Positions 15,385-41,180 are shown, counted from the first letter of the stretch. The stretch: DNA of 64,000 bases from Candidatus Cloacimonadota bacterium (GCA_016932035.1 JAFGDR010000022.1:1226-65225); one strand, 5' to 3'. Notes: generated by a model from the sequence alone, not told the origin. Made by a program: numbers and translations.

Positions 15385-15444
15385 TGTTTTATTGATGTAC
15401 AAAAAAGTTGACATATGTTTTAGCGCACTTGAAATTAGTTCCGT

Positions 15445-15470
15445 GTCTTAGTACCTAAGACCAATTTTTT
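15445..15470 (+). terminator. Short perfect inverted repeat (gtcttag-tac-ctaagac) followed by caatttttt. Possibly a weak terminator for the purM/lipoyl-ligase operon or an operator ahead of the TonB-dependent receptor.
   Basis: 7-bp perfect inverted repeat with a 3-nt loop and a T-run, read directly from the sequence. Confidence 0.25.
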
Positions 15471-15486
15471 CATGAAGGGAGAAGCT

Positions 15487-18400
15487 ATGAAAAGGTACTT
15501 ATTCGCTTTTACATTCGTTGTGCTTTTTCTTCTAGTAGCCGTACTCCATGCAGGTACGACAGGTAAACTTGCTGGCCGGGTTACTGATATTGATTCTGGA
15601 GAGCCCGTTATCGGCGCCAATGTAATCATTATTGAGAAACAAATAGGTGCAACCACAGACGACAAAGGTCGTTATATGGTAATTAACATTCCTCCTGGCA
15701 CCTATGAAGTCAAAGCTTTCAGAATGGGTTATCAAGCAGTCACCATTACAGATGTAAAGATCAATCTTGACTTGACCACAACCTTAAACTTCGAACTCAA
15801 AAGCACTGATACACAAATTGAAGGTATCACTGTTAGAGCAGAACAGAAGCTTGTTGAGAGAGATATTACAGGTTCGGAAAAAATCATTAGTTCCGAAGAT
15901 ATCGAACAAATGCCGGTTCAATCAATTCAAGAGATCGTTGCTGTTACTGCTGGTGCTGTAGGTTCTGGAGAAAATCTTCACATTAGAGGAGGTCGTGCTA
16001 ATGAGGTTGTGTACACTGTTGACGGTATGTCGGTTTCCAATCCGGTTGATAACGGATTTGGCATGCAGCTCGATATGGACGCTGTTGGAGACATGTCCGT
16101 TCAGACAGGTGGTTTTACTGCTGAGTTCGGTAACGCACAATCAGCCATTATTAACCTTGTGACAAAATCAGGTGGTCCTGAATATTCAGGAAAGCTCGAA
16201 ATGAGTTCCGACCACATCTTTGATGAAGGAAGCAATGAAGACCAGGTCAAATTTGCATTTGGTGGGCCGATCATTCCTTCCGGCTCTCAACATCAAAGAG
16301 ATAAGTTCACATTCTATCTCAACACTACTGGTGCATGGACAGACGGAAGGTACAAAGATTACTATGCTCTTGAAGAAACCAACCCTCTGTCTAATCCTCT
16401 TGGGCAACTTTCTTATTTCGGATTCGGTGATTCATTATATTATTTTAACGAGATCAATTCAATCACAGAAGGAAGAGATAAAATTTGGTTGTTTGATGTA
16501 GGTGACAGGTATGTTAACAGCTATCAAGCTAACTTTAAAACAAAGTTCCAGGTTAGTCCAACTGTCAAACTTACAGCAGCAGTTAGAGGTGATAGGGAAA
16601 CAAATCTTCCTTTCAATTATCTTAACCGATTGTCTCTTCGCTATATGAACCACTGGACAACAGAACATAATCAACTTGCACTCACCTGGGATCAAACGAT
16701 ATCTCCAAAAATGTTCTATACTGTCCGCGCAAGCAGGTTCGAGACAAATATTGATTTGAATTCCGGTGTTGATAGAGGTTGGTATTTCACCGCTCAAAAT
16801 GTTGATTGGAACAATCCGACATGGACTGAAGATCCGACTTCCAATAACTTTGGCGTTCATATTCCCGGGCAGCAGGAAGATCAGATTTTAGAATATTACG
16901 ACCAGTTTAATGATGAACAACCAGTGCCGCTGTTCACAAATCCGGGAACACACGCGGGGAATTTCTGGAAAGACCAGACAATCACCTATTCTTTGAGAAG
17001 TGATTTCACTTACCAGATAAACGAAATACATCAAGCTAAAACCGGTATTGAGATCAAATTCAACGAAATTTATAAAGACCGTCTTAATAATCCCTGGGAC
17101 ATTGATGACGTTACAAGACTTCCTAATTATCTAAAAACAGTAACAAAAGTTGATACAAATGTTACTCCCTATGATCAACTAAATATGGTTGCATATGGCG
17201 AAGATATTTACTGGAAGAATGATTTTATCGACGCAATCAAGTTTGCTGGCGGAAATATTGACGGCTATAAAGCCTTTCCCTGGCAGGGCGCATACTATCT
17301 CCAAGATAAGATGGAGTGGGAAGGTATGATCGTTAATGCCGGTATGCGTTTCGACTTCTGGTATCTTGGAAACAAATACCAGATTAAAAGTGATACAACT
17401 GGTAAATATATTGATGCAGAATGGGACAAGGTTACATACATTGTAGACGATGGCAGCGGTGGATTTGAGACCAGAACTGAAGATGTTAAAAAATTCCAAA
17501 TCATGGTTAGTCCCCGTTTAGGTGTATCACATCCTATTACTGATAAAGATGTGCTTCACTTTGCATATAACTACCAAAGTCAGCTTCCTCCAATGCAGTA
17601 TGTGTTCACCAGCTCAACAGAGCGCGCAGGAGAGGTGGGAGCTCAAGTTGGTAATCCTAACCTGAAGCCCGAAACAACTATCACATATGAGGTTGGTGTC
17701 GAGCATCAGATGGGTGAAGATTACCTTCTTGATGTGACTATTTTCTACAAGAATATCTATAATCTTGTTAGTATTCTTGATAATGACTACTCTCTCCTTC
17801 CGGATAGTATTGCACAAGCCGGCAGACAATACTGGCTTTATATTTCGCAGGACTATGGCAGTGCACGTGGTGTAGAACTTACCCTGAAAAAACGTTTTAG
17901 TAATTTCTGGGGCTTCACACTTGGATACACATATTCCTGGGCAAACGGACGTAACTCCGGTGCCGTTGAAGCAAGAGACAACCTGAGAGAATTTCCTCTT
18001 GATTGGGACATCAGACATAATGCTTCACTGAATTTTGATTTCAGAATTCCCGAAGACGAAGAGTTCTATCTCTTTGGTATCAAGATGCCTGATAAATTCT
18101 ATACAAGCTTGCTCTGGAGAATTCAATCAGGTGCTCCCTATACTCCTTTAACACCTGATCCTGATAGTAATGTCCAACTTGAAACAAATTCCGATAGACT
18201 TCCTTGGACAAATAGTGCAGACCTGAGAGTGAGTAAAGCATTCAACCTTTTTGGTGATACTAAATTCACTATCTTCTGCAATATTTCAAATTTATTTAAT
18301 ACCCTTAATATTAACTACGTTGATACAAAAACCGGTGAAACACCTGATAAAGGCACCCTTACCTATTGGGACACCTATGATTTAAATCATGACGGCAAGA

Positions 18401-18519
18401 TCGAACGAGAAGATGGTGAAGACGTTACAGGCGCTGCCATTTATCTTGAAGGACTTTCCAATCCCAATATCTATTCAATAGGTCGCAGGATTTCCCTTGG
18501 TGTAAGATTTGAATGGTAA
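15487..18519 (+). CDS. TonB-dependent outer-membrane receptor with an N-terminal carboxypeptidase-regulatory-like (CarbD) domain
   Basis: CarbD-like 'GRVTDIDSGEPVIGANVII...GTYEVKAFRMGYQ', a plug domain, a long beta-barrel, and a C-terminal '...VRFEW'. GGGAGA RBS ahead of ATG 15487. The listed ORF start at 15472 is a likely over-extension. Confidence 0.8.
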   Translation: MKRYLFAFTFVVLFLLVAVLHAGTTGKLAGRVTDIDSGEPVIGANVIIIEKQIGATTDDKGRYMVINIPPGTYEVKAFRMGYQAVTITDVKINLDLTTTLNFELKSTDTQIEGITVRAEQKLVERDITGSEKIISSEDIEQMPVQSIQEIVAVTAGAVGSGENLHIRGGRANEVVYTVDGMSVSNPVDNGFGMQLDMDAVGDMSVQTGGFTAEFGNAQSAIINLVTKSGGPEYSGKLEMSSDHIFDEGSNEDQVKFAFGGPIIPSGSQHQRDKFTFYLNTTGAWTDGRYKDYYALEETNPLSNPLGQLSYFGFGDSLYYFNEINSITEGRDKIWLFDVGDRYVNSYQANFKTKFQVSPTVKLTAAVRGDRETNLPFNYLNRLSLRYMNHWTTEHNQLALTWDQTISPKMFYTVRASRFETNIDLNSGVDRGWYFTAQNVDWNNPTWTEDPTSNNFGVHIPGQQEDQILEYYDQFNDEQPVPLFTNPGTHAGNFWKDQTITYSLRSDFTYQINEIHQAKTGIEIKFNEIYKDRLNNPWDIDDVTRLPNYLKTVTKVDTNVTPYDQLNMVAYGEDIYWKNDFIDAIKFAGGNIDGYKAFPWQGAYYLQDKMEWEGMIVNAGMRFDFWYLGNKYQIKSDTTGKYIDAEWDKVTYIVDDGSGGFETRTEDVKKFQIMVSPRLGVSHPITDKDVLHFAYNYQSQLPPMQYVFTSSTERAGEVGAQVGNPNLKPETTITYEVGVEHQMGEDYLLDVTIFYKNIYNLVSILDNDYSLLPDSIAQAGRQYWLYISQDYGSARGVELTLKKRFSNFWGFTLGYTYSWANGRNSGAVEARDNLREFPLDWDIRHNASLNFDFRIPEDEEFYLFGIKMPDKFYTSLLWRIQSGAPYTPLTPDPDSNVQLETNSDRLPWTNSADLRVSKAFNLFGDTKFTIFCNISNLFNTLNINYVDTKTGETPDKGTLTYWDTYDLNHDGKIEREDGEDVTGAAIYLEGLSNPNIYSIGRRISLGVRFEW

Positions 18520-18539
18520 AAATTTAGGAGGATATACAA

Positions 18540-19343
18540 GTGTATACCAATAAGAAATTCAGAATTCTACTCTTGGCATTATTGATAACTGGCATGTTTG
18601 TCGGCAACCTTTGTGCGCAGGATGAAATGACAGTTGAAGACACAACAGCAATTACTGAAGAAGAAGTTGTTGTCGTTGAAGAAACAGTCCAAACTGGAGG
18701 CATTGAAGCCTTCGCACGTAAAATTGTCGGTAGCGGCTTAGTTGATCTTTTCATCAAAGGTGGATGGGTCATGTACCCGATGCTCATTCTCGTTATCTGG
18801 GCATTAGCAACTTCCATCTGGAAAATTATTTCCCTTCGTTACGCAAAAATATCTGTTCACGATTTCTTAGAGAAGCTTCTCCCATTAGTTAAAGAAAAGA
18901 AATTCGATGATGCAATAGCACTGTGTGCGAAGACCCGTGGACCTGTTGCCAGCGTTCTACATGCTGGACTGCTCAAAGCAGATAAAGGTTCAGAAGAAGT
19001 TGAAAAAGCTGTTGAACATGCTGCAATTCTTGAAATGTCATTCCTTGAAAAAGGACTTATTGCTTTGGCAACGACCATTAACCTTGCTCCTATGCTTGGA
19101 TTCCTTGGAACGGTTGTTGGTATGATCCAGGCTTTCGAAGCAATCGCTGCTGCTGGTGAAGTTGAACCAACAATTGTAGCAAGCGGTATTTCAGTAGCTT
19201 TGATCACAACAGCATCAGGTTTGGCAGTCGCTATACCTATCCAGTTATTCAACAATTTCTTTGTATCTGTTATTGATGGATTGATCATCGACATGCAGAC
19301 TGGCTCTGAGAAATTGACGGAAGCATTATTAGAAGTCAAATAG
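18540..19343 (+). CDS. exbB: MotA/TolQ/ExbB proton-channel protein with a signal peptide and an acidic N-terminal extension
   Basis: MotA/ExbB TM core ('LAPMLGFLGTVVGMIQAF'). GTG start with an AGGAGG RBS at 18526-18531. Confidence 0.8.
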   Translation: MYTNKKFRILLLALLITGMFVGNLCAQDEMTVEDTTAITEEEVVVVEETVQTGGIEAFARKIVGSGLVDLFIKGGWVMYPMLILVIWALATSIWKIISLRYAKISVHDFLEKLLPLVKEKKFDDAIALCAKTRGPVASVLHAGLLKADKGSEEVEKAVEHAAILEMSFLEKGLIALATTINLAPMLGFLGTVVGMIQAFEAIAAAGEVEPTIVASGISVALITTASGLAVAIPIQLFNNFFVSVIDGLIIDMQTGSEKLTEALLEVK

Positions 19344-19365
19344 CAATGTAAGGAATTGATTTAGC

Positions 19366-19779
19366 ATGAATATTATAAAAGCAAAAAAACCGCGTCTCAA
19401 TCCTAAGATTCCGACATCGTCGATGGCTGACGTGGCATTTCTTTTGCTCGTATTCTTCCTTGTTACAACAAAGTTCGATGTGAAAGAAGGGCTCGGTTTA
19501 GTGCTTCCACCTCACTCCGAATCAGGCGGTCAAAAGGTCAAGATCAAGCAGGAAAACCTCACAAAGATCAAAGTTAATAGAAGAGGTGATATCGCTGTTG
19601 ATGACAAAATTGTCACACCTGCTGAACTTGAGCAGATCGTCGCTGATGTAATCGTGGAAAATCCGAAAATGGTCTTTGTGCTGGAAGCAGATCGTCAGGC
19701 ACGGTACGAAATGATGGTTCGTGCTCTTGATAGATTACTCGCTGCCGGTGCTCAAACCGTATCACTATCTACCCGATAA
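19366..19779 (+). CDS. exbD: Biopolymer transport protein ExbD/TolR (copy 1)
   Basis: 'SMADVAFLLLVFFLVTT' ExbD TM signature, 137 aa. Confidence 0.8.
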   Translation: MNIIKAKKPRLNPKIPTSSMADVAFLLLVFFLVTTKFDVKEGLGLVLPPHSESGGQKVKIKQENLTKIKVNRRGDIAVDDKIVTPAELEQIVADVIVENPKMVFVLEADRQARYEMMVRALDRLLAAGAQTVSLSTR

Positions 19780-19787
19780 GAGGTTCT

Positions 19788-20195
19788 ATGGCAAAAATAG
19801 TAAGAAAAACAAAAATCGATTCTGAGATCCCAAATGCTTCAATGTCCGATATTGCTTTCTTACTGCTGATATTCTTTATGGTTTCAACAACCTTCGTGAA
19901 AGAAAAAGGGTTGAAGGTAGACCTTCCCCGCGCTCAAGCCATTCAGAAGATCAACAGACGCAACGCTGCAACTATTTATGTCAGCCGTTCAGGCCTTATC
20001 TCTATCGATGATTTTGCTACTCCAGTTGACCAGATACAGTATGTTATGCAGGCAAAAGTTGCAGAAAATCCTGCAATGATAACTAGCTTTAGAACTGATA
20101 AGGATACTGAATACGGCATCATGGTAGATGTGATGAACGAGCTTAAGAAAGCAAATGCTCTAAGGGTCTCCTTTGAAGCCCGGAAATTTAGGTAA
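19788..20195 (+). CDS. exbD: Biopolymer transport protein ExbD/TolR (copy 2)
   Basis: 'SMSDIAFLLLIFFMVSTTF' ExbD TM signature, 135 aa. Confidence 0.8.
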   Translation: MAKIVRKTKIDSEIPNASMSDIAFLLLIFFMVSTTFVKEKGLKVDLPRAQAIQKINRRNAATIYVSRSGLISIDDFATPVDQIQYVMQAKVAENPAMITSFRTDKDTEYGIMVDVMNELKKANALRVSFEARKFR

Positions 20196-20225
20196 TGCAC
20201 TATAAATTACTAAAGGTTTTATATT

Positions 20226-20864
20226 ATGCAAAATAAATCTGTTAATACTCAAAATGATTGGAAAGACGTTGCGAGTTCTTTTTATGAGAAATCATTATCA
20301 CTCGCACTTCTTTTGCTGCTCTTCACTTTCATGGTCTTCCCCAAGATCGAAGTGAAACCTTATCAGCATAAGGCAAAAGAAATCCAAACCATTGAGATCC
20401 CACCCGAAGTACGGCAGAAGTTCAAACCTCCGGAAGAAGTAAAACCTATCATACCTCTCACTATTGAAGAGAGTGATATGGGAGATGAAGATGAGGTTGA
20501 AGAAATCGAGACTATCGGTCCGACCACTCTTGATCTCACAAAACCCCCTCCCGTATCTCGTGAAGGTACAACACCGAAATTTGTTGTTCATGAAGAAGAG
20601 CCAATTCCGATGAAAAAGGTTGAACCCGAATATCCCGATTTTGCTAAAAATGCCGGCATCGAAGGTTCTGTAACACTTCGTGCAGAAGTCTTTGAAGATG
20701 GTTCGGTTGGTGCTGTTGAGATTGTTAAAAGTCTTCAGTCTGGTCCTGGTGGTCTCGACGAAGCAGCAATTGAAGCAGTCAAACAATGGAAATTCATACC
20801 TGCAAAAAATCAAGGAAAACCTGTTGCAGTCTGGGTTACCTTTCCGATAACATTCCAGTTATAA
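20226..20864 (+). CDS. tonB: Energy transducer TonB (Pro/Glu-rich linker plus TonB C-terminal domain)
   Basis: N-terminal anchor, a 'PPEVRQKFKPPEEVKP' linker, and a C-terminal 'EGSVTLRAEVFEDGSVGAVEIVKS...AIEAVKQWKFIPA' TonB_C domain. Confidence 0.75.
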   Translation: MQNKSVNTQNDWKDVASSFYEKSLSLALLLLLFTFMVFPKIEVKPYQHKAKEIQTIEIPPEVRQKFKPPEEVKPIIPLTIEESDMGDEDEVEEIETIGPTTLDLTKPPPVSREGTTPKFVVHEEEPIPMKKVEPEYPDFAKNAGIEGSVTLRAEVFEDGSVGAVEIVKSLQSGPGGLDEAAIEAVKQWKFIPAKNQGKPVAVWVTFPITFQL

Positions 20865-20913
20865 AGTAGTACATATGAAAAATAGAATTTTAAAGAAGAA
20901 AGTAGGAGGTAAT

Positions 20914-23900
20914 ATGCGCTCAAAAATTGGTTTCCTGCCTGTTTTTCTGGTAGTGCTCCTCATGCTGATCCTCTCAAGCTCTGTAGTTTGGGCTCGATCG
21001 GTTAATGGTGGCTCCGGCGCAAATAGAAGACTTGATATCTTTCACTATCATGATGTTGGAAACATATGGTTGCGAGTGAGTAACTATGGTTTCTTTGGCT
21101 CTGGAGATGATGTAGTTCCCCAATGGCCCTCCCTGGAATATCCTGGTGGATCCGGTATCGATTATCTATACCAAGGAGCTCTTTGGTTCGGTGCATGCAA
21201 ACAACGAAGAAATGACTTCGGACAAATGTTGTATTGGCAAGATGCGAACCAAGAGACAACCGGGACAGTTAATATGGGCTATGGAAGGGTTATTGATACA
21301 CTCGTTACTGTTGGTTTTGATGGTGATGATGATTATTACGAATTCCTTCCAGCGTATAATCCGTTAGAAGAAAATGTTCTTGGACCTAAGTACGATATCT
21401 ACAACCTGAAAGATGGTGTTATTGAATCATCGATCCGTGACCAGCAAACTGGTGTGGATGATGATGGAGATGGCAAAATCGATGAAGATCCAGCTGGATT
21501 TGCATTTCCCTATCGTAGTACCGTTCCCTCACAATTCAACACTTTTGAATCAGGCATGAATGAATTCAGAGGTGTAGTAGATAGAACACAGTGTTTACCG
21601 GACGAGATCCTCGCAAACATCGACATCTGGTTCCCTCTCGGTTTCCTTGAACTGGGATATGTAGACCCGGATAGCATCTATAACTTTGCTCAAATACAGG
21701 ACGATGATGGAGATCTGCTTCGTGATGAAGATGGCTATCCTATCTCAGAACAGGACTTCCTTGGCTACTATTATGACTATAGTCCCTTTGGAACACCCGG
21801 CGAACGAGTACAGGAAGCACAATCCTATGCTCAAGAACATATTCCTAATAATATCCGTGTCCGCCAGGTAAGTTTTCAGTGGAGTTATGAATATATTAAA
21901 AATCTGGTTTATGTCGAATTCGATATAACCAACATGAATACTGTCGATACACTCTTCGACTGTGCTATGGCAGTGTACATGGACTGTGATGTTGGTCCTC
22001 AATCATGGGGGGCTCAGGCTCGAGCTGGTGACGATATAAGTAGCTATGTTCCTGGAGAAGGCTTTGAGTTTGCCTATACATACGATGCTGATCAGGATGG
22101 AGGTCTCACCACAGGTTACGTAGGTTCTCGTGTGTGTACTCCTGATCCTGAACAATTAGACTTCGCTTGCTGGACATGGGACGTTGGGGATGGTCCAAGT
22201 CATAATGTTTCGAATGCGGATAGAAACGAAAAATACTGGCTGATGACACATAATAAAGACTCATTCAGCACAAAATACACATCGCTCCGTGAAGATCCTG
22301 GCGCTCAATTAAATGATCCATGCGATACAAGATACCTCTTTGCCTTCTATGGTGATATGCAGGGATTTGATGCACCAACGGATTCAAGCTGGAACCTCCT
22401 TCCCGGTGAAACCATGAAAATCGTTATTGCCGTTTTCCCAGGAGACGATGTTGAAGAGCTGAAGAGAACAGCTATATGGTCAAAAGTATTATATGGTGAA
22501 GCTCAAACTCTTACTACAGTTGTTCTACCGGATACCTTCAAACATTATGAAGCACCAGGACCTCCTGACATTCCACATATGACACTCGATCAATCACTAG
22601 ATGGAGATACAATCTTTGTTTATTGGGACAATCGATCAGAATTTACTGTAGATCGAATGACCCTTACAAAAGAATTTGTAGGTTGGCAGGACAGCATTCC
22701 ATTCCTTGATAGTTACATAGGAAAATATGATGAACAGTTAGCCCATTATGGTTATTTTCCCGAAGAATTTGATCCTTGGCATTGGAATGGTCAAACTTAT
22801 AATATAAATGCTACTGTTAATCCGTGGACAGCGTATCGCTTGCGACATGACTTCCAGGGATACTCGCTTTGGAAAGCTGCAAACTCAGGTGAGCAAGATG
22901 CATACATGAGAATGAATCGATGGGATAAAATAGATACTCAACAGGATATGAGAGATTATAATGTATGTATGAATCTTCCTATTGACAGTATGAATGTTTC
23001 TTACGGTGGACAATTGGGAATCAATAACGGAATTCCAATGGACTACATTGTTGGAACAAATCCAACAGAAGATATCATTTATACTACTGACAGCACAGTG
23101 TACTGGACTGACTATTACAGACTCGACTCGCTATATTCTTTCGTGAAAGTTGTTGATGGAAATATGGTATATGGAATTCCTTTGTATAATATTCTTGATA
23201 GTACAGACCAATGCATACAAGATAGTGTTCAAGAATATTCTACCCTCCCAGAGGAAGAAAGACATAGAAAAGAATCCCTTCTCTTCAAGAATCCCCAAAT
23301 GAGCAATGACCTTTATCTGGACCTCTATGACGACAGATTGATACCTCTACCAGAACATTTAGGTCAGGCACATCCTCAAGGTTTGCTTGAATTGAAAAAG
23401 GAGCGTTTATCTCGAAGATATTATATCAGTGAGATACTCTATCCTGAAAAAGGTGTAGAAAACTACTTTGCTGTCACATCGTTTGACAGAGGTATTCCTT
23501 CTCAAAACTTACAAGCTCTTGAGTCAGGTAAAGATGGAAACCGAATAACAATTTTCGGCGGTCCCTCTGCTGCAACGAATCTTGACGATATCTATGTTGT
23601 CCCAAATCCGTATCTTGGACAAAGTAAATTTGATGGACGACGTGATAAGGATGAGAATGGAGACAGAAGTAAACGTATCTGGTTTGTAAATCTCCCTGAA
23701 AAATGTACAATAAGAATATATACTCTTGCCGGTGATCTCGTTGATGAGATTGAACATGACGGCGTATCAACCGTTGATGTTATTAATCCCAGTAAAGCAA
23801 CACATATAGGTATTGCTCCAGGTGGTATCGAACCTTGGGATCTTCTCTCTAAACACGATCAGATCATTGCAAGCGGTGTGTATCTTTATTCTGTTGAAGA

Positions 23901-23949
23901 CCATGCGACTGGCGATGTTAAAGTCGATAAACTTGTTTTAATTAAATAA
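20914..23949 (+). CDS. Large secreted protein (about 1010 aa) with tandem DxDxDG calcium-binding-loop-like motifs and a T9SS C-terminal sorting domain. Function unknown.
   Basis: Signal peptide. 'DDDGDGKIDEDP' and 'DDDGDLLRDEDGYP' EF-hand-like loops. The C-terminal about 85 aa ('IRIYTLAGDLVDEI...SGVYLYSVE...KLVLIK') match the Por_Secre_tail pattern. GGAGG RBS ahead of ATG 20914. The listed ORF start at 20875 is a likely over-extension. No terminator separates it from tonB. Confidence 0.55.
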   Translation: MRSKIGFLPVFLVVLLMLILSSSVVWARSVNGGSGANRRLDIFHYHDVGNIWLRVSNYGFFGSGDDVVPQWPSLEYPGGSGIDYLYQGALWFGACKQRRNDFGQMLYWQDANQETTGTVNMGYGRVIDTLVTVGFDGDDDYYEFLPAYNPLEENVLGPKYDIYNLKDGVIESSIRDQQTGVDDDGDGKIDEDPAGFAFPYRSTVPSQFNTFESGMNEFRGVVDRTQCLPDEILANIDIWFPLGFLELGYVDPDSIYNFAQIQDDDGDLLRDEDGYPISEQDFLGYYYDYSPFGTPGERVQEAQSYAQEHIPNNIRVRQVSFQWSYEYIKNLVYVEFDITNMNTVDTLFDCAMAVYMDCDVGPQSWGAQARAGDDISSYVPGEGFEFAYTYDADQDGGLTTGYVGSRVCTPDPEQLDFACWTWDVGDGPSHNVSNADRNEKYWLMTHNKDSFSTKYTSLREDPGAQLNDPCDTRYLFAFYGDMQGFDAPTDSSWNLLPGETMKIVIAVFPGDDVEELKRTAIWSKVLYGEAQTLTTVVLPDTFKHYEAPGPPDIPHMTLDQSLDGDTIFVYWDNRSEFTVDRMTLTKEFVGWQDSIPFLDSYIGKYDEQLAHYGYFPEEFDPWHWNGQTYNINATVNPWTAYRLRHDFQGYSLWKAANSGEQDAYMRMNRWDKIDTQQDMRDYNVCMNLPIDSMNVSYGGQLGINNGIPMDYIVGTNPTEDIIYTTDSTVYWTDYYRLDSLYSFVKVVDGNMVYGIPLYNILDSTDQCIQDSVQEYSTLPEEERHRKESLLFKNPQMSNDLYLDLYDDRLIPLPEHLGQAHPQGLLELKKERLSRRYYISEILYPEKGVENYFAVTSFDRGIPSQNLQALESGKDGNRITIFGGPSAATNLDDIYVVPNPYLGQSKFDGRRDKDENGDRSKRIWFVNLPEKCTIRIYTLAGDLVDEIEHDGVSTVDVINPSKATHIGIAPGGIEPWDLLSKHDQIIASGVYLYSVEDHATGDVKVDKLVLIK

Positions 23950-23960
23950 AGGTGGTTAAC

Positions 23961-24998
23961 ATGAAAAGGATAATTTTATTACTATTGGCCCTTTTACTGA
24001 TACCAACCTTGGTTCAAGCTGATATTTTTGCAAAAGTTGGTACTGCCGGTTTACAGTTCTTGAAAATCGGTGTTGATGCTCGTGCTATTGGTATGGCAGA
24101 AGCTTATACTGCATATACAAAGGGAGCTTCATCCACGTATTGGAACGTTGCCGGACTTGCCTATTCTACCGATACAGAGTTATTTTTAAATCATACGCGA
24201 TATGTTGCTGACATTAACTATGATTATCTCACCATTGCCTTCCCAACCTCTTTTGGTGTTTTCGGAATTAACGGTTCACTATTGTATATGGATTGGATGG
24301 ATGTTACTACTGCTGATGAATTTGGTCCAAACGGCGAACAATTTACCTGTAGCGATATGATGGCTGGATTATCTTATGCAACAATGCTGACTGATAAATT
24401 TTCAGTTGGTTTATCATTTAAATATCTAAGGGAAAACCTTGATGAATATGACGTCAACGGCTGGGGTATAGACCTCGGATCACTTTATAATACCGGTTGG
24501 AAAGATCTAACGATTGGAATGAGTTTGAGGAATTTTGGTCCTGAAGTGAAATACACCCTCGATAATGATGGAGATGGGCTTATTGATGAAGACCCATATG
24601 ATCTTCTCGACAATGATGCTGACGGACTTGTTGATGAAGATAGAGAAGAACTCTCTTTCGCACTTCCAATGAACTTCTCTCTTGGTATTGCAATGAGCAT
24701 TTTAGAATCGAACATGCAGTCTCTCGATGCTGTTTTCCAGATTGACAACTGTGTCGATCGTCTTGAAACCTACAATGCTGGACTTGAATACAGAATCGGA
24801 ACCTTCTTCCTGCGTGGTGGATATCAATTTAATCTTGATTGTCAAGCTGCTTCTTTCGGATTGGGCTGGAAACTTGCTACTTCCTTTGCTGTTATGGATA
24901 TTGATGCTGCATACACTCCTTTTGGTAAACTAGAAGAAAAGATGGATGGACAATTCCTGACCGGACCTATACGTCTATCCCTGAAAATGAAATTTTAA
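23961..24998 (+). CDS. FadL-family / PorV-like 14-strand outer-membrane protein with an acidic DxDxDG loop insertion. Candidate T9SS cargo shuttle.
   Basis: Signal peptide, then 'GTAGLQFLKIGVDARAIGMAEAYTA...NVAGLAY', which resembles the FadL N-terminal motif. A 'DNDGDGLIDEDPYDLLDNDADGLVDED' insert. The start lies 9 nt after the upstream stop. Confidence 0.5.
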   Translation: MKRIILLLLALLLIPTLVQADIFAKVGTAGLQFLKIGVDARAIGMAEAYTAYTKGASSTYWNVAGLAYSTDTELFLNHTRYVADINYDYLTIAFPTSFGVFGINGSLLYMDWMDVTTADEFGPNGEQFTCSDMMAGLSYATMLTDKFSVGLSFKYLRENLDEYDVNGWGIDLGSLYNTGWKDLTIGMSLRNFGPEVKYTLDNDGDGLIDEDPYDLLDNDADGLVDEDREELSFALPMNFSLGIAMSILESNMQSLDAVFQIDNCVDRLETYNAGLEYRIGTFFLRGGYQFNLDCQAASFGLGWKLATSFAVMDIDAAYTPFGKLEEKMDGQFLTGPIRLSLKMKF

Positions 24999-25034
24999 TA
25001 TTAATCATTAATTAATTACGGAGGATTAACAAAA

Positions 25035-27203
25035 ATGAAAAAAATTGCTATGTTTAGCGTGATGCTACTCGTGCTCGCTGGAATGGTTTGGGCAAATGAT
25101 ATACCTCAGCCAATCAACAATAATTCATATGTTCCGGCAGAAGCTCCAAAGCATCTCAAAGTTGCCTCTCCAACCCGTAATGACGGCAACTTCGATGTTC
25201 CCGACTGGGAATTCATCCAACAACCAACAACTCTTGCGGGTTTTACTAACTACTATGACTATATGCCAGGTAGTTACTGTGGTCGCCCTTTAATGACTCA
25301 ACCCGATGCATTCGGTGGAGTCTACTTCGTATTCCACGGTCGTCCAAATACAACCGATAATAGAAGAGTTTATTGGGCGTATGTGCATGCTGCTGGTAAT
25401 ATTGAATATGCAACAATTACCACTTCTGACACATGGCAGGGTTATCCTGGAATGACCATGCATCCTGCTTCTGGCGATCCTATTGTCTCATGGCATGATA
25501 TTATGGACTCGGCCACCCCTGAAGACACGAACACTCGTGTAACTTATGATGACTACGGTCTTCTGTTTATACCCGGCTTCTGGAAAACACCTGTAACATT
25601 TGACCAGCCAATTCCTTACGTTGACGAATATATCTGGCCTTATATGTACATTGGAATGGCTCCTGATTATGCTACTACCGGCAACTACCGTGTGTATCAG
25701 ATCAGTGGTCAGAATCCTGATGGTGAAATCGAACACGACATCCTTCGCTGGATCGATGTTCCTGAAGACACCTATGTATATGGCGATCTTGAAATTATGC
25801 TGAACAAGAACAACTGGTCTCCTTACGTAAACATTTCACGTGACTGGTCAGATCCCGCAGCCGGCATCGACTGCCGTCCATATCCCTCATTTGCCGTAGA
25901 TCCATTCACTGCTGGACACGTGGCAATATTCGGTTACGCCGGATACACAAACGGTCTTGTTGGTGGTGAAGTTGTACCTCAGGGCTTCTACGTTTGGGAC
26001 TCTTATGATGGTGGAGCAACATGGGATTATGCAAACTTCCATTCATATCAAACAGATGTTGGTATGTACAATGAATATGTCATGTGGGCTGTTGACAATG
26101 TTCCTGGTTTTGTAGATGACAGCAGTATTCCTTATCCTGAACTTCATGTCTGGATCGGTTGGCCCGGTAACCAGCATTCAACCCACAGAACAGCAACTTT
26201 TGATAGTGAAGGAAATCTTCACCTTCCAGAACAATTCTGGATAAGTAACGTTGATGGTGCAGCAGGAAATGCATCGTACTGGCCATATTATCTCTTCCAA
26301 TATCAAGTTGAAGTTGTTTACAAAACTGATGGCACCTGGGAAATCCGCGAAGTTCCGAATCTACCTGGTGTCGATGCTATGAGCGGACACACAGTACCAT
26401 GGGAAATCGAACCCGTTAGTGGTGATACTCTCATTTACCCTTGGCTTACCATGCCATTTACCGATATTACAACCGTCGGTTTCCATGAAAATACTCAACG
26501 AAATGCTGCTAACTTTGAAAACAGCTGGATGGTTCAGGTATGGGATGACGGCACAAAAACACTCATGGCTGAAAATGCTATTCCTGGATATGACGCATAT
26601 GCAACTCATCCAATTCTTTATGTATCTGCAACCAATAACAACGGTGAAAACTGGAGTGCTCCAATTGAGCTTTCCGATATTTACAGTACTGCATTCCCCG
26701 GTTTTGCAGACATGATCACCATGTATCCATATATCAATCCAACGATCAAAGATCTTGGTGATGGCTGGGGACAGATCGACATGTACTTCTTTGATGATAA
26801 TGATTATGGTAGCTCGATTCAGCAGATGGGTCCGGCAACTGGTGGTGAAATGGTCTATTGTTCATTCAAGATCGATTTTGCAAATATGATCGTATCAACA
26901 GATCCTTCACAGTCACAACCGGAAGCAACTATGACACTTCGCAATGTTCCGAATCCTTTCTTCTCACATACTCAAATCCAGTTCTCGGCTAATGTTGGTG
27001 TTGAAAATGCAAAAGTCACGATCTATAATACTAAAGGTCAGCTTGTAAAATCTATTGATGCAATTGCCGATTCTCATACTGCAGGACATGCAATGTGGGA
27101 TGGTACCGATGAGTTTGGTAAAGATGTAGCAAATGGAATCTACTTCTATAAAGTAGAAACCAATGGTGCTACAATTGCCAAAAAGATGATGCTCAATAGA
27201 TAA
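25035..27203 (+). CDS. Secreted BNR/Asp-box beta-propeller protein with a T9SS C-terminal sorting domain (paralog 1 of 3)
   Basis: Signal peptide. Asp-box motifs 'SYDGGATWD' and 'TNNNGENWS'. C-terminal 'NPFFSHTQIQF...VTIYNTKGQLV...NGIYFYKV...KKMMLNR'. GGAGG RBS. Confidence 0.6.
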   Translation: MKKIAMFSVMLLVLAGMVWANDIPQPINNNSYVPAEAPKHLKVASPTRNDGNFDVPDWEFIQQPTTLAGFTNYYDYMPGSYCGRPLMTQPDAFGGVYFVFHGRPNTTDNRRVYWAYVHAAGNIEYATITTSDTWQGYPGMTMHPASGDPIVSWHDIMDSATPEDTNTRVTYDDYGLLFIPGFWKTPVTFDQPIPYVDEYIWPYMYIGMAPDYATTGNYRVYQISGQNPDGEIEHDILRWIDVPEDTYVYGDLEIMLNKNNWSPYVNISRDWSDPAAGIDCRPYPSFAVDPFTAGHVAIFGYAGYTNGLVGGEVVPQGFYVWDSYDGGATWDYANFHSYQTDVGMYNEYVMWAVDNVPGFVDDSSIPYPELHVWIGWPGNQHSTHRTATFDSEGNLHLPEQFWISNVDGAAGNASYWPYYLFQYQVEVVYKTDGTWEIREVPNLPGVDAMSGHTVPWEIEPVSGDTLIYPWLTMPFTDITTVGFHENTQRNAANFENSWMVQVWDDGTKTLMAENAIPGYDAYATHPILYVSATNNNGENWSAPIELSDIYSTAFPGFADMITMYPYINPTIKDLGDGWGQIDMYFFDDNDYGSSIQQMGPATGGEMVYCSFKIDFANMIVSTDPSQSQPEATMTLRNVPNPFFSHTQIQFSANVGVENAKVTIYNTKGQLVKSIDAIADSHTAGHAMWDGTDEFGKDVANGIYFYKVETNGATIAKKMMLNR

Positions 27204-27225
27204 GCCCGTCTTTGCATAAATATTT

Positions 27226-27259
27226 AGCCTGCTCATTTGGTTGAGCAGGCTTTTTTTTT
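27226..27259 (+). terminator. Rho-independent terminator after paralog 1
   Basis: agcctgctca/tgagcaggct 10-bp stem plus a 9-T run. Confidence 0.65.
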
Positions 27260-27415
27260 GCCTATAACTTCTTGACAAAAAAAATATCAATTTTTTCTTC
27301 CATTTATCATAGTATTTTTGATGTAAAAACAGAAATTTCGCGTATGTCGAATTTCATTATTTGTTATCTTCTTTGACAGGTCAAAAAAAATCATTAAAAA
27401 ATTACGGAGGTTTAC

Positions 27416-29497
27416 ATGAAAAAGATTGGAGTAATTTTACTCTTTTGCTTTCTTCTATCTATAAGCGTACTTCATGCAGAATTTATGAACCCTGACGGTT
27501 CAGAACGAACTGCTATTACAGACATCAACGTCGGCAAATTAGTTCCTATAACACAAGTCGATCATCGAGAAAACACACCGGTTCCCGACTACAGCTTCTA
27601 TACAAATCCAACTACGATCATGACGTCCTACTATGACTATATGCCCGGCTCATATGAAGGATATCCATTACAGAAGCAGACCGATAATGGAGATGGATTG
27701 TATATTACATGGTTTGGCACAGCAACAACGACCGCAACACGTCGTCAATATTACGCATATGCTGATGCATTTGGAAGTATTGGTGGCAACTGGGGAACAA
27801 TTTCAACATACGATCGGACCCAGGGATACGGAAGTGTAGCTGTTCATCCCGCTACTGGTGACTGTTTTGCAACCTGGCATGAAAATCCATCAGGATCAAA
27901 TTATGGTTGTGTAATCTGTTATGATGACTATTCCCTACTTAGCATTCCGGGTTTTTGGTCTTCAGTTACTTTTATACCTTCTCCACTTCCTGATGAATAT
28001 ATCTGGCCCTATGTCTATGTTGGTCCTTCTCCAAATGGAGATGGTTGGATTCGGTTGTATCATATCTCAAAAAACTACACTCACGATGCATGGGATCATC
28101 CGTGTGAAGATCCTCGAATCATGTATATTGATGTTGAGAATACTCTTTTTGCTGATATGACTGTTATCCTGAACCTTAACAATTGGACTACAGTAAATCC
28201 AATGTATTATTGGAGAGCAAAGTCATGCCGTCCTCAATCACAAGCGTTTGCAATTGATCACAGTACTCCCGGACACGTTGCTATCGTAGGATACTGTTCA
28301 TGGCTTGAAGGTGATCTCGGTGATATGCCTGTTGATCCAGGTTTCTATATTTTTGAATCTTTCGACTATGGAACAACATGGGATACGGCAAATCTGCATG
28401 GAGATGGTCCGCAAGACTTTATTTATGCGGTTGAGAATATTCCTCATTTCACAGATAATAGCGGAAACCTTATCGACAGTATTAAAGTAGATTCATACGG
28501 ATGGCATGATACTGCCCAGTTTGATGCAAATGGTGTTGCTCATCTTTGTTACCTGCAACAGTATGGATATACCGATGATGCAGGAGACAGCTATTATTTT
28601 AATCATTTCCTCCCGCAAGCAGAAGCAGTTTGGGATGGTATAGCGTGGGATTGGCATAACGTGCCAGCCTTCCCGGGTATCGATCCCTGGACCGGAAGAG
28701 ATGTTCCTTGGGAAATAGTTGGTAATGATACACTTCTCTACGTCTCTGTTTCTTATAATAAATATCCAGAAGATTCTGAAATATTTCACCAGAACACCCA
28801 GAGAAATGCCATCAATAAAGAAAACAATTGGATGGTACAATTCTGGACTGACGGAACGTATGTTCAACTTGCAGAAGACGGTGACCCAGCATATGCAGCA
28901 TATGCACAACACCCGATCCTCTATCTCTCAGTATCTTCAAACAATGGTGATACATGGTCGGAACCTATTGAACTTTCGGATATTTATAGTACTCAATTTG
29001 ACTTCTCGGGACAGATAACAGTCTATCAAAATTTGTACAACTACATTGAAGCTATTAATGACTCGGTTGGTCGAGTTCATATCATGTACTATGATGATAA
29101 CTCATTCGGCTGCTATATCCGTTCAGGAGCTGGGCAGGATGTTGGCGGTCAAATCACCTATTGTTCAGTTGATATTGTATTCCCACCGTTTTCAAATGAT
29201 CCTCAGCCCTCTGTTCCTGTTACCTCACTTTCAAACTATCCCAATCCATTCTTTGCGTCAACTACCATTAATTTCACGGCAAAGAAAGCATATCAAAATG
29301 CGGAGATCAGTGTGTATAATACAAGGGGACAGCTGATCAACACTTTGCATGTGAATCACGGTGACAATCCTTCAGAAGGATACGCTGTATGGAATGGTAA
29401 AGATGCAGCTGGTAAGAATGTTGCTAACGGTATTTATTTCTATAAGGTAGATGTCGATGGCTCATCTCTTACCCAAAAAATGATGTTAACAAGATAA
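27416..29497 (+). CDS. Secreted BNR/Asp-box beta-propeller protein with a T9SS C-terminal sorting domain (paralog 2 of 3)
   Basis: Signal peptide. Asp-boxes 'SFDYGTTWD' and 'SSNNGDTWS'. C-terminal 'NPFFASTTINF...ISVYNTRGQLI...NGIYFYKVDVDG...KMMLTR'. GGAGG RBS. Confidence 0.6.
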   Translation: MKKIGVILLFCFLLSISVLHAEFMNPDGSERTAITDINVGKLVPITQVDHRENTPVPDYSFYTNPTTIMTSYYDYMPGSYEGYPLQKQTDNGDGLYITWFGTATTTATRRQYYAYADAFGSIGGNWGTISTYDRTQGYGSVAVHPATGDCFATWHENPSGSNYGCVICYDDYSLLSIPGFWSSVTFIPSPLPDEYIWPYVYVGPSPNGDGWIRLYHISKNYTHDAWDHPCEDPRIMYIDVENTLFADMTVILNLNNWTTVNPMYYWRAKSCRPQSQAFAIDHSTPGHVAIVGYCSWLEGDLGDMPVDPGFYIFESFDYGTTWDTANLHGDGPQDFIYAVENIPHFTDNSGNLIDSIKVDSYGWHDTAQFDANGVAHLCYLQQYGYTDDAGDSYYFNHFLPQAEAVWDGIAWDWHNVPAFPGIDPWTGRDVPWEIVGNDTLLYVSVSYNKYPEDSEIFHQNTQRNAINKENNWMVQFWTDGTYVQLAEDGDPAYAAYAQHPILYLSVSSNNGDTWSEPIELSDIYSTQFDFSGQITVYQNLYNYIEAINDSVGRVHIMYYDDNSFGCYIRSGAGQDVGGQITYCSVDIVFPPFSNDPQPSVPVTSLSNYPNPFFASTTINFTAKKAYQNAEISVYNTRGQLINTLHVNHGDNPSEGYAVWNGKDAAGKNVANGIYFYKVDVDGSSLTQKMMLTR

Positions 29498-29511
29498 CAA
29501 AAAGATAATCA

Positions 29512-29547
29512 GGATGCCTGTTCTAAACGGGCAGGCATCCTCTTTTT
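29512..29547 (+). terminator. Rho-independent terminator after paralog 2
   Basis: ggatgcctg/caggcatcc stem plus a T-run. Confidence 0.6.
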
Positions 29548-29626
29548 ACGGAGGTCTTTTTCGGAGTTTTTATGATGTATACTACTTCCTATAAAGACCA
29601 TCAAGTATGATCTGAAAGGAGAAAAA

Positions 29627-31708
29627 ATGAAAACGATTATCTTTACAATTATTCTATTAAGCGTTTTAATCTTTCCAATTCAGGCAAAAACTCTCAATCC
29701 AAATCCCAATGAAGCAATTCCTTTTTCTGAATATCCCGATCTAAAAATTGTTCCTTTTAATACTACTTCAAATAGAGAGAACTATCCGGTTCCGGACTTC
29801 AGTTTTAAAACAGTTCCAACAACGATCATGACATCATATTATGACTATATGCCTGGATCGTATGAAGGATTTCCCTATGGGCTGCAGTCAACAATTGGTA
29901 GTGGATATTATCTGACGTGGTTCGGCACTGCTTCTACAACGGCAAACCGTAGGCAGTATTACGCTTATATTAATAGTTCAGGAGTTAATGAATCATGGGG
30001 CACCATATCGAACTATGATATCTGGCAAGGTTACGGAAACTGCACGGTTCATCCCGCAACCGGTGATTGCTTTGCAACCTGGCATGAAGATGGAGATGCA
30101 ACAGGCTACTTTGGCACAACATTTGTTTATGATGATTATGCTTTATTAGGCATACCGGGATTCTGGTCTACGGTCACATATCTTCCACCAAATCTTCCTG
30201 ATGAATATAATTGGCCATACTTCTATGTTGGTCCTTCACCAATGGGAACAGATTACCTTCGTTTGTACCAGGTGTCTAAAAATTTTACGAATGATGCTTG
30301 GGAGAATCCCTGTGAAGATATGCGCATCATGTATATCGATCTGGAAAACACACCTACTGCCGATCTTTCACCTATGTTGAATATGGCTAATTGGACAACT
30401 CAATGGCCAATGTATTACTGGAGATACAAATCATGTCGTCCCTATTCCCAGGCATTTGCAATCGATTATGAAAATCCCGGTCGAGTTGCGATCATCGGAT
30501 ATGCGGTATGGCTTGAAGGTGATCTTGGTGACATGCCGGTCGATGAAGGATTTTTCGTATGGGAATCCAACGACTATGGAACGACCTGGGATGGAAGCAA
30601 TATTCACGGTGATGGTCCAGGCGAAATAATATATGTTGTGGAAAATATTCCCCAGTTTGAGGACAATAGCGGCAATATTGTAGATGAAGTAGAAGTTCAA
30701 TTGGCTGGATGTCATAACACTGCTGTTTATGACAATGACGGCTCTCTCCATCTAACCTTTTTGCAGCAATATGGTTTTACAGATGATGCCGGTGATTTCT
30801 ACTACTATAATCATTTCCTTCCCCAGGCAGAAGCTGTCTGGACTGGAACTGAGTGGGAATATCATGAAGTACCTGGTATGCCCGGTATTGACCCCTGGTC
30901 TGGGCACACTGTTCCTTGGGAAATTGTCGGTAATGACACGATCCTTTATACTACGGTCGGTTTCAGCAAATATACGGGCACCTCAAATATTTTCCACGAA
31001 AACAATCAGCGAAATACCGTGAACCTTGATAACAACTGGATGGTGCAGCTCTGGTCAGATGGAACATATGTTCAGCTGGCTGAGGATGGTGATCCGGCAT
31101 ATCAAGCTTATGCAGAACACCCAATCCTCTACATTTCTGTATCCTCAGACAATGGTCAAACCTGGTCAGATGTCATCGAATTAACTGACATATATAGCAC
31201 ATTGTACAACTTCTCAAATGAGATAACCGTCTATCCTAACCTTAGTAATCATATTGTTGATATGGGTAATAACTATGGACTTGTTTATCTATATTACTAT
31301 GATGACAATTCTTTTGGCTCATTTGCACAAAGTGGGCAAGGTCAGAATACCGGTGGTCAACTCAACTATTGTGAAGTGCAAATTCTGTTCCCGGATTCTA
31401 TATCGATAGATCCAGCTCATTATAATCCGATCTCATTAGTTTCCAATAATCCCAATCCTTTCTTCGAAACGACCAGGATTAATTTCACGACCAAGAAAAC
31501 ATATCAAGAAGCTGCAATCAAGATCTATAACCCTAAAGGACAACTCATTAACACCCTAGAAGTGAACCATGGTGGTAATCCATTTGAAGGATTTGGCATT
31601 TGGAATGGGAAGGATCTGAAAGGTAAAGATGTTACAAATGGGATCTACCTTTATAGGGTGGAAGTAGATGGATCTTCCTATGTAAACAAGATGTTACTTG
31701 CTCGATAA
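29627..31708 (+). CDS. Secreted BNR/Asp-box beta-propeller protein with a T9SS C-terminal sorting domain (paralog 3 of 3)
   Basis: Signal peptide. Asp-boxes 'SNDYGTTWD' and 'SSDNGQTWS'. C-terminal 'NPFFETTRINF...IKIYNPKGQLI...NGIYLYRVEVDG...KMLLAR'. High identity to paralog 2. Confidence 0.6.
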   Translation: MKTIIFTIILLSVLIFPIQAKTLNPNPNEAIPFSEYPDLKIVPFNTTSNRENYPVPDFSFKTVPTTIMTSYYDYMPGSYEGFPYGLQSTIGSGYYLTWFGTASTTANRRQYYAYINSSGVNESWGTISNYDIWQGYGNCTVHPATGDCFATWHEDGDATGYFGTTFVYDDYALLGIPGFWSTVTYLPPNLPDEYNWPYFYVGPSPMGTDYLRLYQVSKNFTNDAWENPCEDMRIMYIDLENTPTADLSPMLNMANWTTQWPMYYWRYKSCRPYSQAFAIDYENPGRVAIIGYAVWLEGDLGDMPVDEGFFVWESNDYGTTWDGSNIHGDGPGEIIYVVENIPQFEDNSGNIVDEVEVQLAGCHNTAVYDNDGSLHLTFLQQYGFTDDAGDFYYYNHFLPQAEAVWTGTEWEYHEVPGMPGIDPWSGHTVPWEIVGNDTILYTTVGFSKYTGTSNIFHENNQRNTVNLDNNWMVQLWSDGTYVQLAEDGDPAYQAYAEHPILYISVSSDNGQTWSDVIELTDIYSTLYNFSNEITVYPNLSNHIVDMGNNYGLVYLYYYDDNSFGSFAQSGQGQNTGGQLNYCEVQILFPDSISIDPAHYNPISLVSNNPNPFFETTRINFTTKKTYQEAAIKIYNPKGQLINTLEVNHGGNPFEGFGIWNGKDLKGKDVTNGIYLYRVEVDGSSYVNKMLLAR

Positions 31709-31733
31709 CATACTCAAAAGTATACAACAAACC

Positions 31734-31763
31734 AAAGCCTGTTCTCACGAGCAGGCTTTTTTC
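31734..31763 (+). terminator. Rho-independent terminator after paralog 3
   Basis: aagcctg...caggctt stem plus tttttt. Confidence 0.55.
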
Positions 31764-31830
31764 AATCATTAGTTGACAAAAATTAAGCTCGGAATAAATC
31801 ACTTATAAAATTAATCCCAAGGAGGATGTA

Positions 31831-32433: not shown

Positions 32434-32438
32434 TCATA

Positions 32439-34040: not shown

Positions 34041-34048
34041 GATAGACT

Positions 34049-40974: not shown

Positions 40975-41180
40975 AATGAGACCTGCCCTTGCCGTGTAAC
41001 AACGAGTTTGAACTATTATTTCAAAAAGATGGGAATTCTATATGTACTTTATGAGTCCTACTGCAATGCAGGCATTCACGCCATACACAATCGAACACCC
41101 TATAGTTCCTGTTTAGCACAAAACAAGATTGCTATCACGAACAGGGCAGGCCTACCGGAAAGAGCAATAATCTATCTTAT
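40975..41180 (-). ncRNA. Structured intergenic RNA. It is a candidate 6S RNA (ssrS-like) or a structured rny leader.
   Basis: A 231-nt non-coding gap immediately downstream of zapA, which is the conserved position of ssrS in some Proteobacteria, E. coli being the example I know. Long-range complementarity of about 14 bp between 40981-40996 and 41136-41151. An internal hairpin ctgca-at-tgcag. Confidence 0.25.

Follow-up and report, generated by a model that had tools for sequence, protein, structure and literature searches.

Receptor-partner systems and the Cloacimonadota locus

Outer-membrane receptors that work with a surface partner are central to nutrient capture, as in SusC/SusD (SusCD) of gut Bacteroidota and TbpA/TbpB (TbpAB) of pathogens. 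In Porphyromonas, PorZ docks on PorQ and PorU docks on PorV. A precedent for the combination of a receptor, a surface partner and a dedicated barrel is provided by the Slam loci of the type XI secretion system (TXISS; PMC8406197), and the Oar-type subclass of TonB-dependent receptors is defined by an N-terminal CarboxypepD_reg extension (PMC6434023). Here we analysed a 64,000-nucleotide (nt) stretch of DNA from a Candidatus Cloacimonadota bacterium (GCA_016932035.1, JAFGDR010000022.1:1226-65225), referred to below as the window, in which the block 15472-31767 encodes an Oar-type receptor, a Ton motor, a large secreted protein that we call P1024, an outer-membrane barrel of the PorV/PorQ family and three propeller proteins. 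An initial annotation had described this block as a TonB-dependent uptake module joined to type IX secretion system (T9SS) cargo. Our analysis suggests that the locus is a third, independent solution to pairing a receptor with a surface partner, in which the partner bears a T9SS-type C-terminal domain (CTD) and has its own PorV/PorQ-like barrel.

The locus resembles SusC/SusD (RagA/RagB) in that a receptor with a CarboxypepD_reg-type extension lies beside a surface partner, with secreted glycan-related proteins nearby. It differs in the partner, which is a multidomain protein with a CTD (about 660-1100 amino acids, aa; no Pfam family) instead of a SusD-like tetratricopeptide-repeat lipoprotein, in the PorV/PorQ-like barrel that it adds as a third component, and in being a single core locus rather than one of many variable polysaccharide utilisation loci (PULs). 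No SusD-family match to Pfam or NCBIfam was found in any of the 10 open reading frames (ORFs). The Slam/type XI loci of Proteobacteria (TbpA-TbpB-Slam and HrpA-HrpB-HrpC; PMC8406197) share with it a receptor, a co-receptor and a dedicated barrel that acts through the C-terminal domain of the co-receptor, often with TonB in the locus. Here, however, the barrel is of the PorV/PorQ family, the handle is a T9SS-type CTD and the carriers belong to the Fibrobacterota-Chlorobiota-Bacteroidota (FCB) group, and the likeness is one of logic only; Pfam detected neither a DUF560 barrel nor a TbpB-like cargo. The PorQ-PorZ and PorV-PorU pairs of the P. gingivalis T9SS differ in the main fold, since PorZ is built on a double propeller and PorU on a C25 peptidase whereas P1024 has a beta-supersandwich with FN3 domains for its body, and in that the pair studied here is genetically tied to a TonB-dependent receptor. 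The Oar/Ton(Oar) system of Myxococcus xanthus (PMC6434023) has the same architecture and neighbourhood, that is CarboxypepD_reg, a plug with a TonB box and a barrel, adjoining a four-gene Ton module with two ExbD; unlike the locus described here, it exports the protease PopC and involves no PorV-like barrel or CTD protein. By analogy, the locus is closer in logic to Slam/type XI than to SusC/SusD, and it is a member of neither. Its parts come from known superfamilies (TonB-dependent transporter, Ton motor, PorV/PorQ and T9SS CTD), and the P1024 family is without a Pfam or NCBIfam model.

Gene content and organisation of the operon

The ORF coordinates given earlier were reproduced exactly across the block, and profile searches with hidden Markov models (HMMs) bore out the assignments of the TonB-dependent receptor, ExbB, the two ExbD proteins, TonB and the PorV-like barrel. 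The features of the block, all on the plus strand, are:

15385-15471 (+), upstream intergenic region with a promoter-like TTGACA at about 15410-15415, from reading the sequence
15472-18519 (+), TonB-dependent receptor of the Oar type, with CarboxypepD_reg extension, TonB-box-like motif, plug and barrel, C-terminus ...RFEW (PF13620, PF07715, PF00593)
18540-19343 (+), ExbB-type proton channel subunit (PF01618, MotA_ExbB, 104 bits)
19366-19779 (+), ExbD copy 1 (PF02472, 85 bits)
19788-20195 (+), ExbD copy 2 (PF02472, 87 bits)
20226-20864 (+), TonB, with N-terminal transmembrane segment, Pro/Glu/Lys-rich linker and TonB_C (PF03544, 77.5 bits; TIGR01352, 64.7 bits, cutoff 27.1)
20875-23949 (+), P1024, secreted multidomain protein and proposed surface partner of the receptor (likely start 20914, 1011 aa)
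23952-24998 (+), PorV/PorQ-family outer-membrane barrel, proposed to dock or shuttle the CTD of P1024 (NF033709; likely start 23961)
25035-27203 (+), P722, seven-bladed beta-propeller with type-A T9SS CTD, final gene of the operon (TIGR04183, 36.6 bits)
27226-27251 (+), intrinsic terminator closing the eight-gene unit (10-bp stem, 6 GC pairs, T9 tail)
27416-29497 (+), P693a, propeller + CTD paralog with its own transcription unit (TIGR04183, 32.3 bits)
29511-29541 (+), intrinsic terminator 3' of P693a (13-bp stem, 7 GC pairs)
29627-31708 (+), P693b, third propeller + CTD paralog with its own unit, 62% identical to P693a (TIGR04183, 21.2 bits, just below the cutoff)
about 31735-31764 (+), terminator-like hairpin 3' of P693b at the end of the block (8-bp stem AAAGCCTG/CAGGCTTT, then a T-run)

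As called, the ORFs from the receptor to P722 are separated by 20, 22, 8, 30, 10, 2 and 36 nt; the block is as compact as had been described. For P1024 the ATG at 20914 is favoured over 20875 (GGAGG 5 nt upstream, a near-invariant M14, homologs of 1007-1012 aa), and the true start of the barrel is most likely the ATG at 23961 rather than 23952. With these two starts the TonB-P1024 and P1024-PorV/Q gaps become 49 and 11 nt, respectively. The first strong terminator is indeed the one at 27226, and upstream of it there are only weak intragenic hairpins. Beyond the first propeller gene the gaps are 212 nt (P722-P693a) and 129 nt (P693a-P693b). Because the terminators and gaps lie where they do, the receptor, ExbB, ExbD, ExbD, TonB, P1024, PorV/Q and P722 are predicted to form one operon, and the sequence implies that P693a and P693b are each transcribed as a unit of their own. 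Upstream of the block lie the housekeeping genes glyS, aminotransferase, PfkB, AIRS and LplA, and Rfam contains no match to a riboswitch in the upstream region that would hint at a substrate.

The plug and the barrel of the receptor score 40.5 bits (PF07715) and 75.1 bits (PF00593), both above the gathering scores, and its N-terminal CarboxypepD_reg domain spans residues 33-121 (63.9 and 59.6 bits, PF13620/PF13715). Between this extension and the plug, at about residues 114-122, lies QIEGITVRA, a TonB-box-like sequence at the level of a motif; in the corresponding motif [IL]EG[VI][TV]V[TR]A the V is kept in 48/53 and the A in 45/53 Cloacimonadota orthologs. Against the SusC/RagA model TIGR04056 the receptor reached 54.4 bits (cutoff 368.25), with a match confined to its N-terminal 180 residues, and its sequence had no match among PDB chains. 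For the channel subunit the equivalog scores are 82 bits for TolQ (cutoff 221) and 48 bits for ExbB (cutoff 206); the TonB_C partner, together with the lack of TolA, TolB or Pal nearby, favours Ton over Tol.

P1024 and its cognate barrel

P1024 combines a conserved N-terminal motif region with an acidic insert (DxDGDG), a beta-supersandwich similar to galactose mutarotase and FN3-like domains; its divergent C-terminal domain resembles a T9SS-type CTD in fold. No Pfam or NCBIfam model matched members of the P1024 family as such; the sole HMM match of P1024 is to the C-terminus of PorZ, with the PorZ equivalog cutoff missed widely, and a sequence search against PDB chains gave no match. In the predicted structure the C-terminal domain is similar to the CTD fold, with PorZ among the similar folds. 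A T9SS CTD had initially been claimed for the 1024-aa protein, where it is recognised by fold only. At the TIGR04183 cutoff of 23 bits the HMM supports the CTDs of 25035-27203 and 27416-29497, and that of 29627-31708 falls just short.

A profile search for relatives of P1024 returned 3,470 representatives at E<=1e-3 (50% clustering). The full-length protein reduces to about two representatives, which makes it a tight family, and many shorter proteins share parts of it. These shorter relatives have the N-terminal motif region and the core in common with P1024, above all the last ~180 residues; likewise, the segment best conserved between phyla is the C-terminal 170 residues (41% identity in a comparison with Calditrichota). 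An acidic, calcium-binding-like insert of the DxDGDGxxDED type, at about residues 190-290, is found in Cloacimonadota orthologs only and is missing from the corresponding loci of other lineages.

The barrel matches NF033709 over its full length with 186.3 bits (cutoff 90) and the F. johnsoniae PorV structure (PDB 6h3i_F) at 2e-12. It stays below all the equivalog cutoffs of the family, with 99.6 bits against 220 for PorQ, 76.1 against 250 for PorV and 61.6 against 325 for PorV2. An alignment revealed that the barrel, too, has an acidic insert of the DxDGDGxxDED type (30 residues, about residues 205-235) that is present in Cloacimonadota only. The paired acidic inserts of P1024 and the barrel may represent a lineage-specific contact.

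Conservation of the locus in Cloacimonadota

When one genome per species was scanned with a P1024 pattern, 273 relatives of the protein came to light, essentially all from Cloacimonadota, and all proteins of the window were mapped onto 80 of these loci. The order receptor-ExbB-ExbD-ExbD-TonB-P1024-PorV/Q-P700, where P700 denotes the propeller paralogs of about 700 aa, was kept wherever the flanks sufficed. It was kept down to 49% P1024 identity and included Ca. Syntrophosphaera, Ca. Cloacimonas and three complete Cloacimonadales chromosomes. The same housekeeping genes usually lie upstream of the locus across Cloacimonadota. The spacing of neighbouring genes was:

receptor to ExbB, median gap 25 nt, <=50 nt in 50/58
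ExbB to ExbD, median gap 9 nt, <=50 nt in 60/65
ExbD to ExbD, median gap 9 nt, <=50 nt in 66/68
ExbD to TonB, median gap 9 nt, <=50 nt in 68/70
TonB to P1024, median gap 18 nt, <=50 nt in 62/71
P1024 to PorV/Q, median gap 10 nt, <=50 nt in 65/70
PorV/Q to propeller, median gap 33 nt, <=50 nt in 37/55

A P700-type gene lies 3' of PorV/Q in most Cloacimonadota loci, and extra propeller copies are always spaced by >100 nt. Since the eight-gene unit is kept with tiny gaps across essentially all Cloacimonadota, the locus is, judged by its synteny, a single core locus of the phylum and not a variable utilisation island. In distant members P1024 (~51% identity) and the barrel (~52%) are level with ExbB, followed by the receptor (~40%) and the propellers (~28%). 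The 1024-aa protein, which had been labelled as cargo, is not ordinary cargo: it is among the best-conserved genes of the operon. The initial annotation had compared the block with a Bacteroidota PUL on an inferred phylum assignment. The host belongs to Cloacimonadota, the close homologs of P1024 and of the propellers all come from metagenome-assembled genomes (MAGs) of Cloacimonadota/Cloacimonetes, and P693a is 100% identical to a protein from a 'Candidatus Cloacimonetes bacterium' MAG. The Cloacimonadota-type operon was also seen on two contigs of a MAG labelled Armatimonadota (L020, JAUWNO010000124.1, and L078, JAUWNO010000260.1; P1024 identity 53-54%), probably as a result of mis-binning.

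A three-gene kernel in other phyla

In Calditrichota (L082) an Oar-type receptor gene is followed by a P1024-like gene and by a PorV/PorQ-family barrel gene (199.6 bits); Ton genes do not intervene. The Calditrichota P1024-like protein (661 aa) aligns with P1024 at the N-terminus, in the core (residues 278-592) and at the C-terminus, and the inserts of the Cloacimonadota proteins are missing from it. In Delongbacteria (L083) a P1024-like gene directly follows an Oar-type receptor gene.

To cover more distant lineages, metagenomes were scanned with 15 distant members of the P1024 family (an alignment of 37 sequences was too diverse to serve as the query), which yielded at least 523 relatives, and the neighbouring genes were classified with HMMs built from the Cloacimonadota loci. 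A receptor of the family lies just upstream in 32/42 loci with enough upstream sequence, and a PorV/Q barrel gene lies directly downstream of 45/66 P1024-like genes with enough downstream sequence. On the family HMM an unrelated receptor reaches 52 bits, whereas the receptors of the distant triads reach 400-525 bits. The P1024-barrel pair is tandemly duplicated behind one receptor in several loci (L115, L122, L136 and L147). Triads of other lineages usually have no adjacent Ton genes; on one contig from outside Cloacimonadota (L097) the Ton module separates the P1024-like gene from the receptor, just as it does in the locus studied here. In Ignavibacteria the order is permuted to P1024-like gene, CTD protein, unknown, receptor and PorV-like gene, and CTD cargo genes flank the triads in several lineages. 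As read from these neighbourhoods, the conserved kernel is an Oar-type receptor followed by a P1024-family protein and its cognate PorV/PorQ-family barrel.

The P1024 family occurs outside this context as well, because on some metagenomic contigs (L124, L126, L151 and L153) tandem arrays of two to three P1024-like genes have no adjacent receptor or PorV/Q gene. A rule by which orphan P1024-like proteins would carry a canonical CTD and triad members a divergent one gave a mixed result, with Por_Secre_tail in 2 orphans and not in 5, and was dropped. The named members of the family come from Ignavibacteria, Zixibacteria, Calditrichota, Delongbacteria and Cloacimonadota and are all annotated as hypothetical; Zixibacteria and Delongbacteria probably also use this receptor-partner solution. 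We found no description of the three-gene unit in the literature searched, which included the Caldithrix genome paper and left most subscription journals outside.

The Calditrichota locus has further neighbours. A BamG/FadL-like barrel of 446 aa (L082, 5759-7099) stands ahead of the receptor gene, and two EB_dh (DOMON-like) proteins (13052-15353) follow the PorV/Q gene; both may be further accessory parts in Calditrichota.

Anaerobic digesters, sediments and anoxic waters harbour the carrier phyla in abundance. The linkage described above allows a role to be proposed for the P1024 family, for a PorV/PorQ clade that is neither PorV nor PorQ and for one clade of Oar-type receptors, and it bears on the function of PorV-family barrels outside the canonical T9SS and on the question of whether Oar-type receptors import or export.

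Propeller proteins

The propellers had been labelled as BNR propellers, an assignment that we did not recover: there is no BNR HMM match and only 2-3 loose Asp-box-like motifs, and the closest folds of the seven-bladed propeller are GH145/PL42 and not the six-bladed sialidase. No recognisable match to a carbohydrate-active enzyme (CAZyme) HMM was obtained. The ectodomain of the propellers (compared for P693a, 27416-29497, and its homologs P0187, P0213 and P0215) is 43-47% identical to archaeal proteins from Thermoplasmatota, in which PKD domains and a hydrophobic tail at the C-terminus stand in place of the T9SS CTD. It looks as though a surface module has been exchanged between the domains of life, and the propeller fits a modular extracellular enzyme or binder. 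What seemed to be P700 homologs beside the triads of other lineages matched by the CTD alone and were rejected; for this reason, we regard the propellers as an accessory of Cloacimonadota outside the cross-phylum kernel.

A proposed mechanism and its alternatives

We propose, with moderate confidence, that the locus encodes an energised importer together with a surface co-receptor, which the T9SS would export and which would dock through its retained CTD on the cognate PorV/Q barrel. One component of the T9SS is encoded in the window, outside the operon:

2076-8327 (-), SprA-like T9SS translocon, 2083 aa (PF14349, SprA_N, 112.7 bits)

With this SprA-like gene, the host has the export channel that CTD proteins need; no gldK/L/M/N (porK/L/M/N) or porU gene was found in the 64 kb. 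According to the proposal, P1024 and the propeller proteins would use Sec to traverse the inner membrane and the T9SS, with SprA encoded 7 kb away, to traverse the outer one. P1024 would keep its divergent CTD and be held at the surface by the docking of this CTD on the co-encoded PorV/Q-like barrel. Docked in this way, it would serve the neighbouring receptor as a co-receptor or as a lid and capture the substrate, probably a glycan or glycoconjugate, which the propeller proteins may process first, and the dedicated ExbB-ExbD2-TonB motor would open the receptor plug for import. A cognate P1024-barrel pairing is suggested because the C-terminal module is the best-conserved part, because the pair duplicates as a unit and because both proteins gained acidic inserts in Cloacimonadota only. 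The hint at a glycan or glycoconjugate comes from the galactose-mutarotase-like domain of P1024 together with the GH145/PL42-like propellers.

Several observations weigh against this proposal. The CTD of P1024 is invisible to TIGR04183 and PF18962, so that we infer its dependence on the T9SS, as we do the physical contacts among receptor, P1024 and barrel. The structure model of P1024 is of moderate quality (predicted local distance difference test, pLDDT, 66), with its N-terminal 320 residues poor, and the analysis revealed neither an enzymatic active site nor a ligand. About 1/4 to 1/3 of the informative metagenomic P1024-like genes have no adjoining receptor or barrel, and in a few genomes (L036, L076) second P1024 copies lie amid ordinary CTD-cargo genes without a Ton module. 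The strict conservation of a single locus throughout the phylum could fit a structural or biogenesis role and not nutrient uptake. Finally, the receptor architecture and its four-gene Ton neighbourhood match those of Myxococcus Oar, which is a protein exporter.

This last point leads to an alternative in which the direction of transport is reversed: the Oar-type receptor with ExbB-ExbD2-TonB would move, insert or display proteins of the P1024 family, and the PorV/Q barrel would collect them via the CTD. Oar, with the same CarboxypepD_reg, plug and barrel and near tonB-exbB-exbD-exbD, is required for the secretion of PopC (PMC6434023). The atypical CTD of P1024 escapes the T9SS CTD HMMs, the receptor adjoins a P1024-like gene across phyla, and PorV acts as a cargo shuttle in the T9SS, all of which would suit such a role. 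On the other hand, SprA in the same window offers CTD proteins a conventional route, a folded protein of ~110 kDa cannot pass a 22-strand barrel unless it is unfolded, most triads of other lineages are without adjacent Ton genes, and Slam-type loci combine the same linkage of receptor, partner and barrel with TonB used for uptake only. We therefore consider export unlikely. The same holds, at a similarly low probability, for its wider form, a minimal, TonB-powered, T9SS-like display or secretion pathway in FCB lineages other than Bacteroidota, in which a TonB-dependent barrel replaces or joins SprA and hands the CTD protein to a cognate PorV-like carrier; such a pathway would be of high interest if true. 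Rather improbable, too, is that P1024 and the barrel belong to the secretion machinery as a Cloacimonadota/FCB-type counterpart of the PorZ-PorQ (or PorU-PorV) attachment complex and serve to process or anchor further CTD cargo, for example the propellers, with the receptor supplying something needed or merely being co-regulated. PorQ gives the barrel its top equivalog score (99.6 bits), the only HMM match of P1024 is the PorZ C-terminus, both genes are conserved like housekeeping genes and genes for CTD cargo border the triads of several lineages; yet the PorQ, PorV and PorZ equivalog cutoffs are all missed by a wide margin, the core of P1024 is a supersandwich where PorZ has a double propeller, tandem P1024-barrel duplicates and arrays of P1024-like genes would be unusual for core machinery, and the tight linkage to one receptor family would be left unexplained.

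Two further readings fare worse. The initial annotation saw in the block the logic of a PUL, with T9SS cargo in the place of SusD. That a T9SS-sorted protein replaces SusD is a reasonable reading, because the linkage is conserved across Cloacimonadota and the kernel recurs in other phyla, but the locus is not a Bacteroidota PUL and fails the SusC and SusD tests. A variable, regulated and substrate-specific PUL in the Bacteroidota sense, to which a receptor with a SusC-like N-terminal extension linked to secreted proteins of glycan-related folds might point, is very unlikely: the host is not one of the Bacteroidota, the receptor score lies far below the SusC/RagA cutoff, there is no SusD, CAZyme HMM match or regulator, and the locus is a single syntenic one, phylum-wide and beside housekeeping genes. 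Mere adjacency, with the main Ton system and a receptor sharing an operon with unrelated genes for surface proteins, would be in keeping with the fact that bacterial operons can mix functions; read-through is not provable from sequence and promoters inside tonB are possible. However, the linkage of receptor, P1024 and barrel persists in other phyla where Ton genes are lacking and survives the reordering in Ignavibacteria, and the triad receptors are one specific family, which leaves adjacency hardly credible.

Other features of the window

The window contains further genes outside the block. An ORF of 831 aa (35153-37648, minus strand) has no Pfam or NCBIfam match. A 6S (SsrS) RNA gene is located at 40976-41155 (minus strand), just downstream of the RNase Y gene, and matches RF00013 (88.8 bits; gathering score 46.4). 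Directly after the block, at 31831-35077 (plus strand), lies a lipoprotein trio that consists of an LpoB-like protein (PF13036), a 537-aa protein without a Pfam match and an LPP20-like protein; the trio, which possesses a promoter-like site of the TTGACA type for itself, is kept after the block in two close relatives (L006 and L016).

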